64,000 bases of DNA from Candidatus Micrarchaeota archaeon (GTDB taxonomy: Archaea; Micrarchaeota; Micrarchaeia; Anstonellales; Anstonellaceae): contig JAPLWX010000050.1 of assembly GCA_026396415.1 (NCBI GenBank), positions 15,783 to 79,782 of the forward strand, given 5' to 3'. Shown one piece after another: positions 4,209-63,603 of the stretch. The notes under the pieces are model-generated. The model saw nothing but the letters and a program-made list of their open reading frames with translations. It ran no database searches and had not been told where the DNA came from. Both the position numbers and the translations under genes were made by a program. Position 1 is the stretch's first letter; each line of letters opens with the position of its first letter.

Positions 4209-4371
4209 CCCTCCTGCGCAGCCTATTCTGCCGGAAAAACATAATAAAGCGCACCGGAACCACTGGAATGCCGCTTGGGAAGCGCTTATATCCCTCCTTT
4301 GCGCCAGCCTTTCCGCCTTTTGCAGGCGTTGCGCGCAAGCATTATAAGTTTAATGATACTTTAATGCAATG

Positions 4372-4383
4372 TTAATGCATTAA
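4372..4383. promoter_or_regulatory. perfect 12-nt palindrome TTAATGCATTAA with repeated TTAATGCA half-sites; candidate operator upstream of the RHH antitoxin gene
   Basis: Seen directly in an AT-rich leader. A GGTGAGG Shine-Dalgarno-like element lies at 4394-4400, before the ATG at 4403. Confidence 0.35.
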
Positions 4384-4402
4384 TATTGCAAAAGGTGAGG
4401 AA

Positions 4403-4663
4403 ATGAACGTGAACCTCCATTTGGCCGGCGACGTGGAAGCCTACATAGATTCCCTCGTGCGCCGCGGATTGGCGGCAAGCAAGACCGAGGCAGTGCGCCT
4501 CACAATCGTGCAGGCCCGGCAGCGCGAGCTTGAGCTGGAAAGCGAAAGGCGCGGCACGGACAGGCTCAACCAGATGACAATGGAGCTCGCATGGAACAAT
4601 CCAAAGGACGACGAAGCTGCGAAATTCTATGAGAAAAGGTATCTCCGTGGCAAAAAGATCTGA
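4403..4663 (+). CDS. ribbon-helix-helix (CopG-like) antitoxin
   Basis: 86 aa. Starts MNVNLHLAGDVEAYIDSLVRRGLAASKTEAVRLTI. Small size, and it overlaps a downstream MazF-like gene. Confidence 0.55.
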   Translation: MNVNLHLAGDVEAYIDSLVRRGLAASKTEAVRLTIVQARQRELELESERRGTDRLNQMTMELAWNNPKDDEAAKFYEKRYLRGKKI

Positions 4664-4970
4664 CATAGTGGTAGCAAAGGTCTATTTTTCGGATTCGCCA
4701 GATGGCAAGCTGCGCCCCTGCATTGTCCTTTCGGATGAGCGCTACAATTCCAGCGGCTTTGCGCTAGTGGCCCCCATCACAACCTCCGGCGACGAATACT
4801 GCCTGCCAATCGGGAAAAGCGACTGCGATTGCGACCTTGCGGGCGGAAGCGGCGCGCGCTTTGATGGAATCGCAAAAATCCCGCTTTCCCAGATACGGCA
4901 CAGGATAGGGCGGACAAAAGACGGGTTCTATTGGAAGCTAGCATCAAAAATCAGGGAACTTATCGAATGA
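4629..4970 (+). CDS. mazF: MazF/PemK family toxin (endoribonuclease)
   Basis: Motifs RSDIVVAKVYFSDSPDGKLRPCIVLSDE ... ALVAPITTS are typical of PemK/MazF. The start may instead be the GTG at 4647. It overlaps the antitoxin by 17-35 nt. Confidence 0.7.
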   Translation: MRKGISVAKRSDIVVAKVYFSDSPDGKLRPCIVLSDERYNSSGFALVAPITTSGDEYCLPIGKSDCDCDLAGGSGARFDGIAKIPLSQIRHRIGRTKDGFYWKLASKIRELIE

Positions 4971-5092: not shown

Positions 5093-5383
5093 ATGGGTGG
5101 CTCTGGCGATGGTGAAATGCCAGGCAAGGAGGCGACTCCTGCTGAAGAAGAAGGCAAGGTGGCTGGGCAAAAGCCTGATTTCCGGATTGTCCAGCCTGAG
5201 TATGTGCCTGCGCTTGGCAAGACCATCTACAAGGACGTGGGCGCCATGTGGCGCAACGTCAGCAAGGCAGGCAACGAATTCTACACGTTGAAGATTGGGA
5301 AGCTCAAGCTTCTCGTTTTCCAGAACATCCAGTCGCCTATGGCGACTGTCTCTCAGGGGGCGCAGCCCCCGAAGACGAAGTGA
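5093..5383 (+). CDS. hypothetical small protein (96 aa)
   Basis: ORF between mazF and radA. The sequence is not low-complexity. No family recognised. Confidence 0.25.
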   Translation: MGGSGDGEMPGKEATPAEEEGKVAGQKPDFRIVQPEYVPALGKTIYKDVGAMWRNVSKAGNEFYTLKIGKLKLLVFQNIQSPMATVSQGAQPPKTK

Positions 5384-7556: not shown

Positions 7557-9266
7557 ATGTCTAAAACTGCTGAGCTTCTGATGCCGAATAGTCCTCTGGT
7601 CAGGAATTTTGTAAATAAAAATCTACAGGCTGCGCTTGAGCGTGGAAGAAAGCCGATAGATATAAATGCGAGCAGGCTGCTCCTCGATATCAATTCCGAT
7701 ATTGGGCGGCTGCAAATCACACCTGAAGAAGCCAGGAAAAATCTTCAATGGCTGGAAGCTAATCATAAGGCGAATCTTCAAGAAAAAGATGCGAAAACAA
7801 TGATTGAAGCGCTGCTGCTTAAGACCGGCTGTCCATTCAATGCAGAAGCCATCAATGTGCTTGTCAATCTTCTCACGGACTCTGGCACGTCTCAGCTGAC
7901 CCCAAGGCAGGAAGCTTTCAAAAAGCAATGGCAATCCCTTGTGGCTGATGAATATACTGTTGCATACAATCGCCCTGCCACAAGAGACCCGCTGGATTTT
8001 GTTTTCCAGACAATGCTGGGTGAGCAGTTTGATTTCTATCTTACTCCCCAATGCAGGGGTGCTGAATTCGTTGGACTCAAGTCGCTGCTGGCAAACGGGG
8101 TTATAGAAGCCGAAGACTGGGTCCTGACAAACCACCCTTTTGATACTACAAAGGGGCATATCCTGTTGGCACTGCTCAATATCGCCATCTGCGGAGAAAA
8201 TATTACTCCTGAAAGATACGAGAAGGATCCCGACGGGTTCCATGGCAATATCAATATGGAAAAGTTGGCGGAAAATTACGAGAAAAGCGGCGGAAGGTCA
8301 AAAATCATCCTGGCCACGGTGACCGATAATGCGGATGGAGGCCAGCCTGTTTCAATGGAGAATCTGCGCAAAGTCTCTGAGTTTGCGCGTCCGCGCGGGC
8401 TCCTGGTGTGGCTGGACTCTTGCCGCATATTTGAAAACGCGATGCTCATCAAGCTGCACGAGCCTGGCTACCAGGACAAGACCGTGCATGAAATTGCAAA
8501 GGAAATGGCATCTTACGCGGATTTCGGCACAATAAGCTTCAAGAAGATATACTCGCACGAGGGAGGGGGCTTTTTTGTAAACCGCAATTCAGAGCTTCTC
8601 GCGGGCAAGATTGAGGCAATGGGCAGGTCTTTGCAGGAATACATCACCATATACTTTGGCTGCGGCTTTAAGTCTTATTCCGGAAAATCTGGAATGGCAA
8701 TGGTCGAGATGATGTCTGGCTTGTTTGAGGCTGTTGACCCAGAAATACTGATGAAGCGCATAGGCCAGGTGAAAGGCGCATACAAAGCTGTGCATCGACA
8801 TAGCAATAGCTGGCTGCCTGGTGCCCATGCGCTATACGCAGCGGCTGACAAGATTCTGTATAACGTGCCTAGGGAAAATTGCCGGGCAGAGACATTCCAG
8901 ATGGTAAACTTCGCGGCTCTTGGGATGCTTGGCTGCGCTTTGGGCGACAGGCTCAATGGCAAGTGGGAGAAGGATGGACAACTCTGGACACTAAAAGTTC
9001 CTGCTTCTGCGGATTGGATGAGGTACGCATTTCCAAGGGAGCGCTACATTGGTGCGAAACTCGCGTTAATCGAAATAGTGGGTATTGCTGAAAAAGAAGG
9101 CGTTTATTCGCAGATTAAGGATGGCTTTGAAGCCTTGGACTTCAACCCATTTGGGTTTTGGCATTTTGGATCAAGATTCAAGGCAATATCTCCTGCGGAG
9201 ATACAAAAAGCAATACTCTGGATCTATGATATCGCTGTCGCTTACTTGAAGGAGCGGATGGGATGA
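7557..9266 (+). CDS. beta-eliminating lyase family PLP enzyme (tryptophanase / tyrosine phenol-lyase-like) with about 90-aa N-terminal extension
   Basis: Aligns by eye to TnaA across the whole core. LLTDSGTSQLTP matches LLTDSGTGA, PQCRGAEF matches HQGRGAE, NHPFDTTKGH matches NYFFDTTQGH, and ILATVTDNADGGQPVS matches IVATITCNSAGGQPVS. A PLP-lysine context SFKK matches SAKKD. The gene is visibly lower in GC than its neighbours. Confidence 0.7.
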   Translation: MSKTAELLMPNSPLVRNFVNKNLQAALERGRKPIDINASRLLLDINSDIGRLQITPEEARKNLQWLEANHKANLQEKDAKTMIEALLLKTGCPFNAEAINVLVNLLTDSGTSQLTPRQEAFKKQWQSLVADEYTVAYNRPATRDPLDFVFQTMLGEQFDFYLTPQCRGAEFVGLKSLLANGVIEAEDWVLTNHPFDTTKGHILLALLNIAICGENITPERYEKDPDGFHGNINMEKLAENYEKSGGRSKIILATVTDNADGGQPVSMENLRKVSEFARPRGLLVWLDSCRIFENAMLIKLHEPGYQDKTVHEIAKEMASYADFGTISFKKIYSHEGGGFFVNRNSELLAGKIEAMGRSLQEYITIYFGCGFKSYSGKSGMAMVEMMSGLFEAVDPEILMKRIGQVKGAYKAVHRHSNSWLPGAHALYAAADKILYNVPRENCRAETFQMVNFAALGMLGCALGDRLNGKWEKDGQLWTLKVPASADWMRYAFPRERYIGAKLALIEIVGIAEKEGVYSQIKDGFEALDFNPFGFWHFGSRFKAISPAEIQKAILWIYDIAVAYLKERMG

Positions 9267-27639: not shown

Positions 27640-28209
27640 CTATGCAGATTTAGGAGCTGGCGGTTGGCTTGGAATGGCTTTTTCCACTTGCCGGTTCCAC
27701 TGGTAGATGTCGAGGCGCATGCTTACATTTGCCCCGCTGCCGTCGCTCAGGTTCCTTACAAATCCCAAGCCGGTGTAGAACTTAAGCTGGGCCGGGTAAG
27801 CATCCACTGTTACGAACCTGCAGCCGACTTCCTCAGATATGGCTATCGCCTTTCCGATGATGTATTTCACTAGAAATGCCCCCACTCCGCGATTTTGGTG
27901 TGGCGTTGCTGTTGCCAACCGGGCCACCTTGATTCCAGGGTAATCCGCGTGGGGCTTTTCTTTTCCGAACTCATCCTTCCGTTCTTTCATGCCCAGCCGG
28001 ATTGCATCCGTGCACACGCTTATGAACGCAATCGGCTCATTTTTATAAAGAGCAATGAATGTCTGGGCCAGCTTCTTTTCTGCGTATACAAATGCGTCAT
28101 TTCTGATAAAATCGTTCAGGTCCGGATCGTTGCAATCAAATTTCTCAACTGATATGCCTGGCTTGAGGCGAACAATCGTAAGTTCTTCCACTGGGAATGG
28201 CTCTGGCAT
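27640..28209 (-). CDS. GNAT-family acetyltransferase of the TacT/AtaT-like toxin type
   Basis: Has the KFDCNDPDLNDFIRNDA motif (the FDCG-xxxLNxFL signature of GNAT toxins). The acetyl-CoA loop is QNRGVGAFLVKYIIGKAIAISEEVGCRFVTVDAY. GC is lower than the flanking genes. Confidence 0.55.
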   Translation of the reverse strand: MPEPFPVEELTIVRLKPGISVEKFDCNDPDLNDFIRNDAFVYAEKKLAQTFIALYKNEPIAFISVCTDAIRLGMKERKDEFGKEKPHADYPGIKVARLATATPHQNRGVGAFLVKYIIGKAIAISEEVGCRFVTVDAYPAQLKFYTGLGFVRNLSDGSGANVSMRLDIYQWNRQVEKAIPSQPPAPKSA

Positions 28210-28221
28210 AAAAGTCGGCGC

Positions 28222-28374
28222 TCATACCTTGAATTTTTGGTATATGTCGAAGCATTCGTGCAGGAATTTTGCCTTCTTCGGATTAACCGCAGACTCTTCA
28301 ATCCGTGTCTGCTCAAGGAAATTCTCCGCATTCTTCCCTTCAAGAACCGGCGTCGGTTCAATTGGTTTTGCCAT
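28222..28374 (-). CDS. 51-aa ORF immediately upstream of the GNAT gene (12-nt gap); candidate cognate antitoxin
   Basis: The manual translation is MAKPIEPTPVLEGKNAENFLEQTRIEESAVNPKKAKFLHECFDIYQKFKV. It is not in the ORF track because it is under 60 aa. Position and size fit the antitoxin slot of GNAT-toxin modules. Confidence 0.3.
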   Translation of the reverse strand: MAKPIEPTPVLEGKNAENFLEQTRIEESAVNPKKAKFLHECFDIYQKFKV

Positions 28375-28696
28375 TTGTTCCACCACTGCTGTCTCAGCTA
28401 CTGTTCCTACTGACCTTATTGTTGCGAGAATATATAGATTTACTGACCCACCGAAGATAGTTTAGTGCCAAATTCACTGTCTTTGGTTTACCATCATGGT
28501 AGTTTGTTTATAAATAAAATCAGATACGGCTGCCAATCCGCGCGCAATTTCTGGAAAAGGATAGGTCGAAAACAGAACGTAGCTGTAGGCGAATATCGCG
28601 CTGCTAAAATAGAGGCTTCGGAAGGTTAGCCTTTATTGGTTGTTCATATTTTGGGAATAAAACATAGGTTTATAATACTGTATAACATAATGTTAC

Positions 28697-28894
28697 ATGG
28701 GAATGTATATGGTCAAGATATTGATTGATTTGTCAGACGAAGAGGACAAGATTGCCGAAGTCTACAAGGTTGTCAATGGTCTGAAAACGAAACAGGAAGC
28801 CGTGAAGCGGATGGTGAGGCACTTTAAGGTCAGCATAACTCCAACTAATCTTGACAAGCACGATGAATACTACAAGAAAACTGTGAAATTCTGA
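28697..28894 (+). CDS. small protein (65 aa), possibly RHH/CopG-like
   Basis: The sequence VKILIDLSDEEDKIAEVYKVVNGLKTKQEAVKRMV resembles RHH-type small regulators. It is AT-rich, and its stop abuts the LemA start. Confidence 0.3.
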   Translation: MGMYMVKILIDLSDEEDKIAEVYKVVNGLKTKQEAVKRMVRHFKVSITPTNLDKHDEYYKKTVKF

Positions 28895-28895
28895 G

Positions 28896-29447
28896 GTGAT
28901 GTGCGTGGACTATATGATATACGTTGTTAGCGGAGTAGTCGTGATTGGAGGCATATATTGTATCATTACATACAATCGACTTGTCAATCTTAGGATAAAC
29001 GTAGACCGACAGGCAAGTCATGTTGAGGTTCATCTCAAGAAGAAATTCGACTTGATACCCGCCATTGTTGAGTGTGTCAAGGGCTACGCCAAGCACGAGA
29101 AGGGAACTCTGGAGGAGGTCACGCACTTGAGGTCGCAGTGGGCGGAGAGCAAGACCAAAGATGAGAAGATTAAGAATGCCAACATGCTCGAAGCAGCGCT
29201 GTCCAAGTTACTCATTGTTCAGGAGAATTATCCGCAACTGAAAGCCGACAGGAGTTTCATCAGGCTTCAGAATGAAATCACCCATGTGGAGAATGAACTG
29301 GCACATGAGAGGAAGGTTTTCAACAAGAGGGTGAGTTGGTATAATGTGAAGCTCCAAGAGTTTCCTTCGGTGTTGGTTGCCAAGGCACTTGGATTTCAGG
29401 AGAGGGAGTTCTTCACGTTCGGGAAGGGCAGTATGGATATCGAGTAG
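28896..29447 (+). CDS. lemA: LemA family protein
   Basis: An N-terminal TM is followed by YNRLVNLRINVDRQASHVEVHLKKKFDLIPAIVECVKGYAKHEKGTLEEVTHLR, which closely matches the LemA family. Confidence 0.75.
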   Translation: MMCVDYMIYVVSGVVVIGGIYCIITYNRLVNLRINVDRQASHVEVHLKKKFDLIPAIVECVKGYAKHEKGTLEEVTHLRSQWAESKTKDEKIKNANMLEAALSKLLIVQENYPQLKADRSFIRLQNEITHVENELAHERKVFNKRVSWYNVKLQEFPSVLVAKALGFQEREFFTFGKGSMDIE

Positions 29448-41392: not shown

Positions 41393-41573
41393 GGAAAATG
41401 GCGCGCGCATTCCTTCCACCGGCACAGTCAAATCCAGAAGGATTTGGCGTGCAGTGCACTGAAAGTGCACCGGCATCCTGCCCTGCGCATATTTTTAAGC
41501 CATTTTTCCGTTATTTTCGCCATGAACAACCCACCCCGTAATGTGCAACCATTAAATATCCAGCATATCATTG

Positions 41574-41583
41574 AATGTACATT
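41574..41583. promoter_or_regulatory. 10-nt palindrome AATGTACATT upstream of the second RHH antitoxin; candidate operator, with GGTGAG Shine-Dalgarno-like at 41585-41590
   Basis: Seen directly. The arrangement is the same as at the first RHH locus. Confidence 0.3.
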
Positions 41584-41593
41584 GGGTGAGCAT

Positions 41594-41824
41594 ATGAATG
41601 TAAATTTGGGCGAATACTACCAGGCAATAATCGGCAAGGCGATACAAAAAGGGCTTGCCGGCAACCAGACCGAAGTGATACGCCAGGCGCTCCTTGACTA
41701 TGGGCGCAAGCTTGACGATGAAGAGGCGATGCTTGTCGAGCGCGGCGTGCGCGCTGAAATGGAAAAGATGAAGGGCAAGAAGTGGACTTCGCAGGCGCAG
41801 CTGAAAAAGGAACTGGGTCTTTGA
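41594..41824 (+). CDS. RHH-like antitoxin (paralog of the 4403 gene; shares MNVNL N-terminus)
   Basis: 77 aa. The sequence MNVNLGEYYQAIIGKAIQKGLAGNQTEVIRQALLDY is followed by a charged tail. Its stop abuts the relE ATG. Confidence 0.5.
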   Translation: MNVNLGEYYQAIIGKAIQKGLAGNQTEVIRQALLDYGRKLDDEEAMLVERGVRAEMEKMKGKKWTSQAQLKKELGL

Positions 41825-42085
41825 ATGGAAATCGACTGGTCTGACGAGGCAAAAAAAGACGTCAAGGCATTTGAAAGGAAGCTACAAGGCTTCTTCCTTT
41901 CCCATATTGAAAAGCTCGCCTGCATGCCGCCTCGCCGCCACCTGAAGCACGGCCTCCCCTGGAACGTGGAAGATGTTACAAAACAGGCACGCCTCGTCTA
42001 CTTGGCAGACGGTGATGTCCTTCGTGTCATCCGCTGCTTTGCCACGCACAAGGAATACCAGAGATGGTACCAGTCGTACAGGTGA
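41825..42085 (+). CDS. relE: RelE/ParE family toxin
   Basis: The sequence MEIDWSDEAKKDVKAFERKLQGFFLSHIEKLA...RLVYLADGDVLRVIRCFATHKEY fits the RelE/ParE fold pattern. Confidence 0.65.
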   Translation: MEIDWSDEAKKDVKAFERKLQGFFLSHIEKLACMPPRRHLKHGLPWNVEDVTKQARLVYLADGDVLRVIRCFATHKEYQRWYQSYR

Positions 42086-51107: not shown

Positions 51108-51380
51108 ACCTTTCTCCTTATACTAGAGCCTGCGAGTTTTGTCCCCTGGCGATGCGGGGACGAGTCACGTTTGCTGATGCCACGGTGGCATACCGGAACT
51201 GAATTGACCTTAGATTCGGTCATCTCGCGCGCAGGCACGCCGAACAAATGGAAACGCGATCCTTTCGCGTTCGACGCACGCTTCAGGCAACTACAAGGAA
51301 AGAGCGATTAGAGTGCTAAACCGCTGATCATTAAGATCAGCCAATGAATGCGGAAAAAATAAGGATTAAGTCTTCTATGA

Positions 51381-52948
<1,568 letters not shown>

Positions 52949-63179: not shown

Positions 63180-63389
63180 TCACAAGTCGTCTTCTGAAAT
63201 CCCGGTCTGCTTCATTATGTGGCGCAAAAGCCCTCTCTTGAGTTCACGGTGCAAAGGCACTGTGACCGGGGGCAGGAACCTATGGACCAGATTGACATGG
63301 CTTCCCTTCCTGCTCCTCACGACATAGCCTTTTGACTTGATGAGCGCGGATGCAAGCTTCTCCCCGGACACAACAGGAAGCTTAGCCAC
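63180..63389 (-). CDS. hicA: HicA-family toxin
   Basis: The sequence SGEKLASALIKSKGYVVRSRKGSHVNLVH...VTVPLHRELKRGLLRHIMKQTGISEDDL is a near-consensus HicA. Confidence 0.75.
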   Translation of the reverse strand: MAKLPVVSGEKLASALIKSKGYVVRSRKGSHVNLVHRFLPPVTVPLHRELKRGLLRHIMKQTGISEDDL

Positions 63390-63603
63390 TCAGCAACACC
63401 GTTGCAACCTGTGCCCTCTGCGAGCCATTCTGCGCCCGGTAAGAGCCAAGCGATTCGAGGTGCAAAAGAAGCGCCTCCCTGATATTCTGCAAAGCCTCGC
63501 CCCGGGTCTCGCCCTGTGAAACGCACTCCGGCATGGAAGGGACCTCCACCCAGTAGCCCCCCTCGCTTGCCTTGTGCAAAAGAACGCTCACTTTTATTGC
63601 CAT
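63382..63603 (-). CDS. hicB: HicB-like antitoxin (UPF0150 family)
   Basis: The sequence KASEGGYWVEVPSMPECVSQGETRGEALQNIREALLLHLE matches the HicB N-domain. It overlaps hicA by 8 nt. Confidence 0.6.
   Translation of the reverse strand: MAIKVSVLLHKASEGGYWVEVPSMPECVSQGETRGEALQNIREALLLHLESLGSYRAQNGSQRAQVATVLLSG

Follow-up and report, generated by a model that had tools for sequence, protein, structure and literature searches.

Two toxin–antitoxin loci lie in a 64,000-nucleotide stretch of Candidatus Micrarchaeota archaeon DNA (contig JAPLWX010000050.1, positions 15,783–79,782 of the forward strand). We refer to this whole stretch as the window and count coordinates from its first letter. At each locus a small antitoxin gene is followed by a co-directional toxin gene. 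Both antitoxins start with the pentapeptide MNVNL, as an earlier note on this DNA had observed, and no other open reading frame (ORF) of the window does so. Sequence comparison indicates that the two proteins have a homologous ParD-like ribbon–helix–helix (RHH) head and unrelated C-terminal tails. The coding features are as follows:

4403–4663, plus strand: antitoxin 1, 86 amino acids; ParD-like RHH head (approximately residues 1–40) and helical tail, predicted to bind MazF (hhalign, structure model)
4629–4970, plus strand: toxin 1, MazF/PemK (Pfam PF02452)
41594–41824, plus strand: antitoxin 2, 76 amino acids; probable ParD-family RHH antitoxin (Pfam PF03693)
41825–42085, plus strand: toxin 2, 86 amino acids; RelE/YoeB/ParE fold (family profile, Pfam matches of family members, AlphaFold model)

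Gene products of the two loci

Toxin 1 matches PF02452 with an E-value of 9.1e-10 and 39.2 bits (cut-off 23.1) over profile positions 1–108 of 109. Its gene overlaps that of antitoxin 1 by 35 nucleotides (nt) if translation starts at ATG 4629, or by 17 nt from GTG 4647. Homologues begin at the position equivalent to GTG 4647, with an intergenic gap of −17 in loci L083, L089 and L090, and this comparison points to GTG 4647, with its 17-nt overlap, as the probable true start.

The exact antitoxin 1 product is labeled 'hypothetical protein' in the NCBI record of a Candidatus Micrarchaeota metagenome-assembled genome. Among its relatives, one of 17 family members matches RHH_1 (PF01402), and the family alignment shows a conserved tail motif, W-N-N-P-K-D-D-E-A-A-K-F-Y. 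The predicted structure has an extended N-terminus (residues 1–8) followed by helices at residues 9–20, 27–64 and 67–81. Its top Foldseek matches are all RHH antitoxins (ParD2 and ParD1), with weak scores (E 0.24, probability 0.92). Together with the alignment of its family to that of antitoxin 2, described below, the model identifies the N-terminal fold as RHH.

The genes of locus 2 are directly apposed, with the antitoxin stop codon ending at 41824 and the toxin ATG beginning at 41825. Antitoxin 2 exceeds the cut-off of 21 for PF03693 (24.0 bits, E 5.5e-5) and falls below that of NCBIfam TIGR02606 (26.2 bits, cut-off 46.2); the profile of its family matches the ParD structures 7b22 and 3kxe in the PDB (E 0.004–0.03). 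Toxin 2 belongs to a small family, with 48 cluster representatives at E ≤ 1e-3 in an exhaustive phmmer search of 1.84 billion proteins. We place it in the RelE/ParE superfamily for three reasons: (i) 12 of 26 aligned family members match PF05016 (best E 2.7e-6); (ii) the family profile matches RelE and YoeB chains in the PDB (E 0.004–0.02) and (iii) the AlphaFold model (predicted local distance difference test score 90.3, predicted template-modeling score 0.80) has the corresponding fold. The top Foldseek matches of this model are YoeB (2a6r; E 8e-5, template-modeling (TM) score 0.71), HP0894, RelE1, YafQ and RelE (4fxe), with TM scores of 0.65–0.71 to YoeB, HP0894, RelE and YafQ. Conserved residues of the family (H39, R56, F72, H75 and Y78) suggest a toxin of the RNase type rather than a ParE. 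The two loci thus carry different toxin types, as the earlier note had proposed: PemK/MazF according to Pfam at locus 1, and a member of the RelE/ParE superfamily according to the family profile and model at locus 2.

Homologous loci and toxin partners

For antitoxin 2 (family 2) we drew on 287 relatives from Joint Genome Institute metagenomes, of which 80 were kept, and for antitoxin 1 (family 1) on 27 genome loci, all of them from Micrarchaeota; family 1 appears to be restricted to this group. Partner fidelity is high in both families. A PemK toxin accompanies the antitoxin in 22 of 22 core family-1 loci, and a RelE-type toxin does so in 72 of the 74 family-2 loci that could be checked on their contigs. 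Of the remaining two, one has a truncated toxin and the other has none: L005 retains a 35-residue toxin remnant at 1732–1836 and L068 is without a toxin, and their antitoxins may be orphans.

Each window antitoxin is 50–95% identical to orthologues that have the same toxin partner in many other Micrarchaeota. Flanking genes are common only to relatives whose antitoxins are at least roughly 60% identical, most of them 86–95%, and more distant homologues lie in other gene contexts, as expected for mobile toxin–antitoxin modules. IMG/VR, searched for signs of viral carriage, yielded no relative of antitoxin 1 or antitoxin 2. Two matches there to the family-1 tail motif proved to be spurious, being radical-SAM-like proteins that carry FAWDNPKDD.

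Leader motifs and candidate operators

The leaders of the two antitoxin genes contain the following features:

4341–4348, plus strand: TATA-box-like ATTATAAG, predicted promoter of locus 1
4351–4389, plus strand: four direct repeats with an 11-bp period, putative operator of antitoxin 1
4372–4383: palindrome TTAATGCATTAA, center of an imperfect 26-bp palindrome (4365–4390)
4394–4399, plus strand: Shine–Dalgarno-type GGTGAG, 3 nt before the ATG of antitoxin 1
41540–41549, plus strand: operator-like site AATGTGCAAC at the upstream edge of the TATA box
41551–41558, plus strand: TATA-box-like ATTAAATA (ATTATATA in relatives)
41574–41583: palindrome AATGTACATT, putative operator located at the predicted transcription start or close to it
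41585–41590, plus strand: Shine–Dalgarno-type GGTGAG, 3 nt before the ATG of antitoxin 2

A perfect palindrome in each leader had been proposed earlier as an autoregulatory operator. Both palindromes, TTAATGCATTAA and AATGTACATT, are indeed perfect and occur once each in the window. Perfect 10-mers number 79 in the window and 83 are expected from a Markov model; for 12-mers the corresponding numbers are 23 and 22. In a shuffled leader of 73–74 nt the chance is 0.03 for the locus-1 12-mer and 0.06 for the locus-2 10-mer. Since the window counts equal the Markov expectation, we rejected the palindromes as evidence by themselves, and what significance they have derives from comparison with homologous loci rather than from counts alone. 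The comparison covered approximately 100 homologous loci, with 73 non-identical family-2 leaders and 19 core family-1 leaders, and enrichment was measured in leaders versus the rest of the same loci.

In family 2 the comparison bears out the palindrome. The motif [AG]ATGNNCAT[TC] is enriched 214-fold in leaders (58/73), with peaks at −55 and −32 that bracket a TATA box at approximately −44; the window's own subgroup has a peak at −19. TATA-like motifs are themselves enriched 50-fold (64/73). At the position of AATGTACATT, relatives carry GATGTACATT, GATGTGCATC or AATGCTCATT, and at the place corresponding to 41540–41549 close relatives have AATG[CT][AG]CAAC and other subgroups the full AATGYRCATT palindrome. 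The distance from the TATA box to the start in archaea is usually about 25 nt, and on this spacing the transcription start of locus 2 would lie in or just after the palindrome at 41574–41583.

The picture for family 1 is different, and here the proposal regarding the palindrome did not hold. The sequence TTAATGCATTAA is not kept as a palindrome in family-1 homologues, and even the 91%-identical relative L082 has the degraded form TTAATGCATCAA. In locus 1 it consists of the third of four repeat units plus flank, the units being TAATGA at 4351, TAATGC at 4362, TAATGC at 4373 and TATTGC at 4384. The motif TA[AG]TGC is enriched 30-fold in family-1 leaders (15/19), with sites at −43, −32 and −21; the TATA box lies farther upstream, at about −53, and 17/19 leaders have a TATA-like heptamer between −51 and −55 relative to the ATG. 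Within the same leaders the distance from one A[AG]TG[CA] core to the next is 11 in 15 cases, 22 in six and 33 in four. Judged from the aligned leaders, the conserved element of locus 1 is the set of TAATGC-type direct repeats, and the palindrome is lineage-specific. The two motif types scarcely mix: ATGNNCAT occurs in 0/19 family-1 leaders, and family-2 leaders seldom contain TA[AG]TGC.

It is possible to read these motifs instead as core-promoter or initiator elements, or as sites for a host regulator, such that the operons would not be autoregulated through them. Such a reading would suit their AT-rich composition, their location directly beside or after the TATA box and the palindrome counts, which show no excess of perfect palindromes in the window. 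We nevertheless consider it unlikely and infer that the leader motifs are antitoxin operators, because (i) motif type tracks the antitoxin family and not the genome, with ATGNNCAT at locus 2 and TAATGC repeats at locus 1 of a single genome; (ii) the leader from −35 accompanies the RHH head, not the toxin, in relatives where heads and toxins have been swapped (see below) and (iii) the motifs show dyad symmetry or one-helical-turn phasing. Both of these arrangements are typical of RHH operators, as in Arc, MetJ, CopG and omega.

Two further candidates were examined in family 2. The first codons of antitoxin 2, TGAATGTAAATTTGG (41595–41609), nearly repeat the upstream TGAATGTACATTGGG (87%). A second operator at this position was rejected, since the synonymous sites of the MNVN codons vary freely in homologues (AAT/AAC, GTA/GTC/GTT/GTG), and the repeat is probably a by-product of these codons. 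Nor is there a clear case of covariation of the operator arms with ribbon residue 4, which is Asn, or Ser in the MNISIG subgroup; the ATG...CAT arms are retained in both residue-4 subgroups.

The equal spacing of GGTGAG before the two antitoxin genes, which had been taken as a sign of common origin, is real and has a simpler explanation. The sequence GGTGA can pair with the 3′ end of the 16S rRNA encoded in the same window, which reads GATCACCTCC, so GGTGAG is best described as a ribosome-binding site. It occurs 34 times in the window, and GGTGA also precedes HicB, LemA and an ORF at 7557. Homologous loci have GGTGAT, GGTGAG or GGTGG at the equivalent place, and GGTG[AG] is found in 12/19 family-1 leaders. 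Across the window GGTGA precedes 16% of ORF starts, a slight excess over the 8–13% seen for control pentamers, and the use of Shine–Dalgarno sequences is therefore not general in the window. We rejected GGTGAG as the signature of a duplicated cassette, given its match to the 16S 3′ end and its recurrence before other genes.

Relationship of the two antitoxins

A BLASTP alignment of antitoxins 1 and 2 has 14/37 identities, all of them in the N-terminal part (E 1e-5 for a single comparison), and the two heads are about 30–38% identical. The similarity is clearer at the level of families, where hhalign returns a probability of 94.6% (E 7e-8) over 38 N-terminal columns with approximately 35% identity. 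MNVNL is conserved within both families, with N4 invariant in both; at ribbon position 6, family 1 has His and family 2 has Gly. The tails show no alignable similarity (3% identity in the joint alignment). An RHH-looking ORF elsewhere in the window (28697–28894) served as a control; its hhalign probability against family 2 is 0.15%, and it was rejected as a third relative.

Could the resemblance be a matter of chance or convergence, with MNVNL and the RHH-like similarity following from generic constraints on a short strand–helix–helix and not from common descent? Such a reading could point to the small size of the domains, to the absence of a Pfam RHH match for antitoxin 1 and to the outcome of database searches, in which the two antitoxins retrieved 17 and 23 clusters, respectively, each from its own family only (where named, Micrarchaeota/Micrarchaeia or Arc/MetJ-type RHH). 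Against this, the hhalign score stands far above the 0.15% of the control ORF, and the similarity continues beyond the ribbon into helix 2 (G-L-A-x-x-x-T-E-x-I-R). Moreover, loci L100–L108 supply intermediates that bridge the two families at 35–56% identity, and both antitoxins map to ParD-type RHH structures. Chance is therefore very unlikely, and we retain common descent of the heads. At the domain level, the alignments describe antitoxins 1 and 2 as old paralogues and not as products of a recent duplication.

Exchange of heads and tails in relatives

The earlier note had suggested that toxin modules were shuffled onto a duplicated antitoxin or promoter cassette. The first half of this proposal finds direct support in relatives of the two loci. 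A genome scan that started from family 1 brought up, in addition, five Micrarchaeota loci (L104–L108) that combine a family-1-like head with a RelE/ParE-type toxin. The toxins of L105 and L107 match PF05016 (E 5e-14 and 5e-10), those of L104, L106 and L108 match the hidden Markov model of the toxin 2 family at about 1e-23, and those of L101 and L102 are PemK (Pfam E about 1e-16). The loci most informative for the exchange are:

L101, 1489–2089: swap locus with PemK toxin
L102, 239–842: swap locus with PemK toxin
L104, 1489–2026: swap locus with RelE-type toxin
L106, 1501–2025: swap locus with RelE-type toxin

Between L101/L102 and L104/L106 the N-terminal domains are 77–81% identical and the tails 12–16%. 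DNA identity is 0.62–0.73 from −35 to +145 of the start codon and about 0.4 beyond, which places the breakpoint near codon 48, between head and tail. Tails group by toxin type: those linked to RelE-type toxins are 21–36% identical to family-2 tails, and those linked to MazF have the pattern W-[ND]-N-P-x-D-x-x-A-x-x-[FW]-Y in common. These alignments of relatives make it directly visible that a head and its proximal leader can join different modules of tail plus toxin.

Such joining does not, however, relate the two window loci in recent time. Pairwise alignment, which had been suggested as a check, gives a divided answer: the heads are homologous well beyond the five shared residues, and the leaders contain no alignable block beyond GGTGAG-N3-ATGAA. 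The notion of a duplicated promoter was rejected on these grounds, and with heads of such low identity and leaders of this kind there is no sign of a duplicated cassette in the present genome. Each family is widespread with its own fixed partner, from which it follows that the split of the two heads long predates this genome. Recent duplication of an antitoxin/promoter cassette in the present genome, one copy then gaining the other toxin module, would account for the shared MNVNL, GGTGAG-N3-ATG and palindromes, the homologous heads and the real swapping near codon 48 in relatives, but it is largely refuted and extremely unlikely given the divergence of heads and leaders, the different operator types and the orthologues that have the same partner elsewhere.

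A proposed model for autorepression

The explanation that we favor, and consider likely as a whole, is that the window holds two independent type II operons of conventional design, with homologous RHH heads and unrelated tails, each repressed by its own antitoxin through a family-specific motif. The comparisons above establish the gene identities, the homology of the domains, the enrichment and placement of the motifs, the constancy of the toxin partners and the swaps in relatives; DNA binding, repression, the start of transcription and the activity of the toxins are predictions of the model. Each antitoxin would consist of an RHH head of about 40 residues, starting with the β-strand MNVNL, fused to a tail that fits its own toxin. 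In the predicted ribbon, Val3 and Leu5 would point into the core of the dimer, and Asn2 and Asn4 towards the major groove of the DNA. Antitoxin dimers would dock at the motifs over the archaeal core promoter, with their two-stranded ribbon placed in that groove. At locus 2 the sites would be the [AG]ATGNNCAT[TC] palindromes that flank the TATA box, with the palindrome at 41574–41583 lying at the expected start; at locus 1 they would be the four TAATGC-type repeats, which follow the TATA box, precede the ribosome-binding site and share one face of the DNA. The toxin would probably act as co-repressor and link several dimers, which together may cover the TATA/start region and block the archaeal pre-initiation complex, so that the operon is repressed by its own product. 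If the labile antitoxin is lost, the operon would be de-repressed and an endoribonuclease released; for toxin 1 this would be of the MazF/PemK type and for toxin 2 probably a ribosome-dependent mRNase.

Several observations weigh against this explanation. Neither antitoxin 1 nor toxin 2 has a Pfam or NCBIfam match of its own. The structural match of antitoxin 1 to ParD is weak, and a monomer model cannot display the ribbon. For toxin 2, the fold by itself is compatible with both an RNase and a ParE-like gyrase poison. The metagenomic loci are phylogenetically non-independent, and a 30-member MNISIG subgroup dominates the family-2 counts. Because the motifs overlap an AT-rich core promoter, their conservation could come partly from promoter function. 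Finally, the position of the transcription start is a prediction from TATA spacing.

A bolder extension would treat the MNVNL head and its proximal promoter as a portable cassette that recombines at approximately codon 48, and would allow the antitoxins to bind each other's promoters. The identical DNA-facing Asn2 and Asn4, and operator cores that share AATG, make cross-binding conceivable. We think this extension improbable; if true, the MazF and RelE modules of a symbiotic archaeon with a reduced genome would form a single regulatory circuit.

Relation to known systems

Locus 2 resembles ParD–ParE and RHH–RelE systems in its ParD-type antitoxin N-terminus, the toxin of RelE/ParE fold directly downstream, the placement of the antitoxin gene before the toxin gene and the palindrome in its promoter. 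The comparators are Caulobacter ParD1–ParE1 (3kxe), Vibrio ParD2–ParE2 (7b22/7r5a) and Escherichia coli RelBE, together with the archaeal RelBE structures from M. jannaschii (3bpq) and P. horikoshii (1wmi). Unlike these systems, the toxin 2 family is small and divergent, the window protein lacks a Pfam match, and the promoter is archaeal, with sites that flank a TATA box. The C-terminal His-x-x-Tyr of toxin 2 is closer to the YoeB/RelE RNases than to ParE. Locus 1 resembles pairs of a CopG-type RHH antitoxin with MazF, such as YdcD/EndoAI–EndoA of B. subtilis and MoxXT of B. anthracis, in that an RHH antitoxin gene overlaps a downstream PemK/MazF gene. It differs from them in having a head that is nearest to the ParD type and not to CopG/RHH_1, and a putative operator that is an array of direct repeats with an 11-bp period.

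The inferred sites also recall the met-boxes of MetJ, the heptads of omega and the operators of CopG and Arc, where short repeats or palindromes approximately one helical turn apart overlap the promoter. Those promoters are bacterial and of the sigma-70 type, whereas the window loci have archaeal promoters of the TATA/transcription factor B type.

Pairs of RHH antitoxins with either toxin are well documented. A catalogue from 2009 lists 510 RHH–RelE and 81 RHH–MazF pairs and describes RHH as a hub of a modular toxin–antitoxin network (Makarova et al. 2009, PMC2701414). The RHH–MazF systems YdcDE and MoxXT have been described, as has the modular construction of antitoxins from an N-terminal DNA-binding head and a C-terminal toxin-neutralizing tail (PMC3879964). 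The exchange of DNA-binding heads and toxin-binding tails in such a network is credited to both Makarova et al. (2009) and Leplae et al. (2011; cited in PMC3879964). Our observations agree with the modular network (PMC2701414) in that one RHH clade serves two toxin superfamilies, with the breakpoint between head and tail. There is no difference in principle; what is added is that the swap is resolved at the DNA level within one archaeal phylum, and that the proximal promoter accompanies the head.

Current understanding is unchanged by these results, since RHH–MazF and RHH–RelE pairs, antitoxin modularity and promoter autoregulation are already textbook knowledge for type II systems. The contribution lies in the annotation of two previously unnamed Micrarchaeota families, a MazF-paired RHH antitoxin and a divergent RelE/YoeB-like toxin; in a clean case, visible in the DNA sequence, of heads and tails exchanged between antitoxins linked to MazF and to RelE; and in a comparative prediction, over approximately 100 loci, of toxin–antitoxin operators on an archaeal TATA-box promoter. 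Our literature search found no study of toxin–antitoxin regulation in Micrarchaeota or DPANN, and the predicted operators offer concrete, cheap targets for electrophoretic mobility shift assays and footprinting in a phylum without genetics.

Other features of the window

Two additional regions were considered as toxin–antitoxin loci:

63180–63603, minus strand: pair of HicB (63382–63603) and HicA (63180–63389) (Pfam)
27640–28386, minus strand: GNAT acetyltransferase (27640–28209) with an upstream 54-amino-acid ORF (28222–28386) (Pfam)

The HicB–HicA pair reported earlier is real and lies on the minus strand. The two genes are adjacent, with HicA matching HicA_toxin (PF07927, E 6e-14) and HicB matching HicB_lk_antitox (PF15919, E 8.6e-8). 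The GNAT domain is supported by Pfam matches at E 6e-7. The 54-amino-acid ORF upstream of it has no family match, and for this reason the GNAT gene is only a candidate toxin–antitoxin module. The earlier estimate of about four toxin–antitoxin loci in 64 kb thus reduces to three that are confirmed and possibly a fourth.

A complete archaeal 16S rRNA gene is located at 51380–52948. No 23S gene was found in the 11 kb after it and no tRNA was detected in the whole 64 kb; the rRNA genes appear to be unlinked. The window also contains the gene for RadA. Between the MazF toxin gene and RadA lies a small ORF (5093–5383) with a sub-threshold match to DUF736 (E 7e-4), which is kept beside the toxin–antitoxin pair in L001, L082 and L086.

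The segment 28001–30000 is an island of low GC content (0.41–0.45, with a window mean of 0.55) and may be foreign DNA. It includes the 65-amino-acid RHH-looking ORF at 28697–28894, which is without a Pfam match and adjoins the LemA gene (28896–29447; Pfam E 1e-47) on its upstream side. This low-GC stretch neighbors the GNAT gene.

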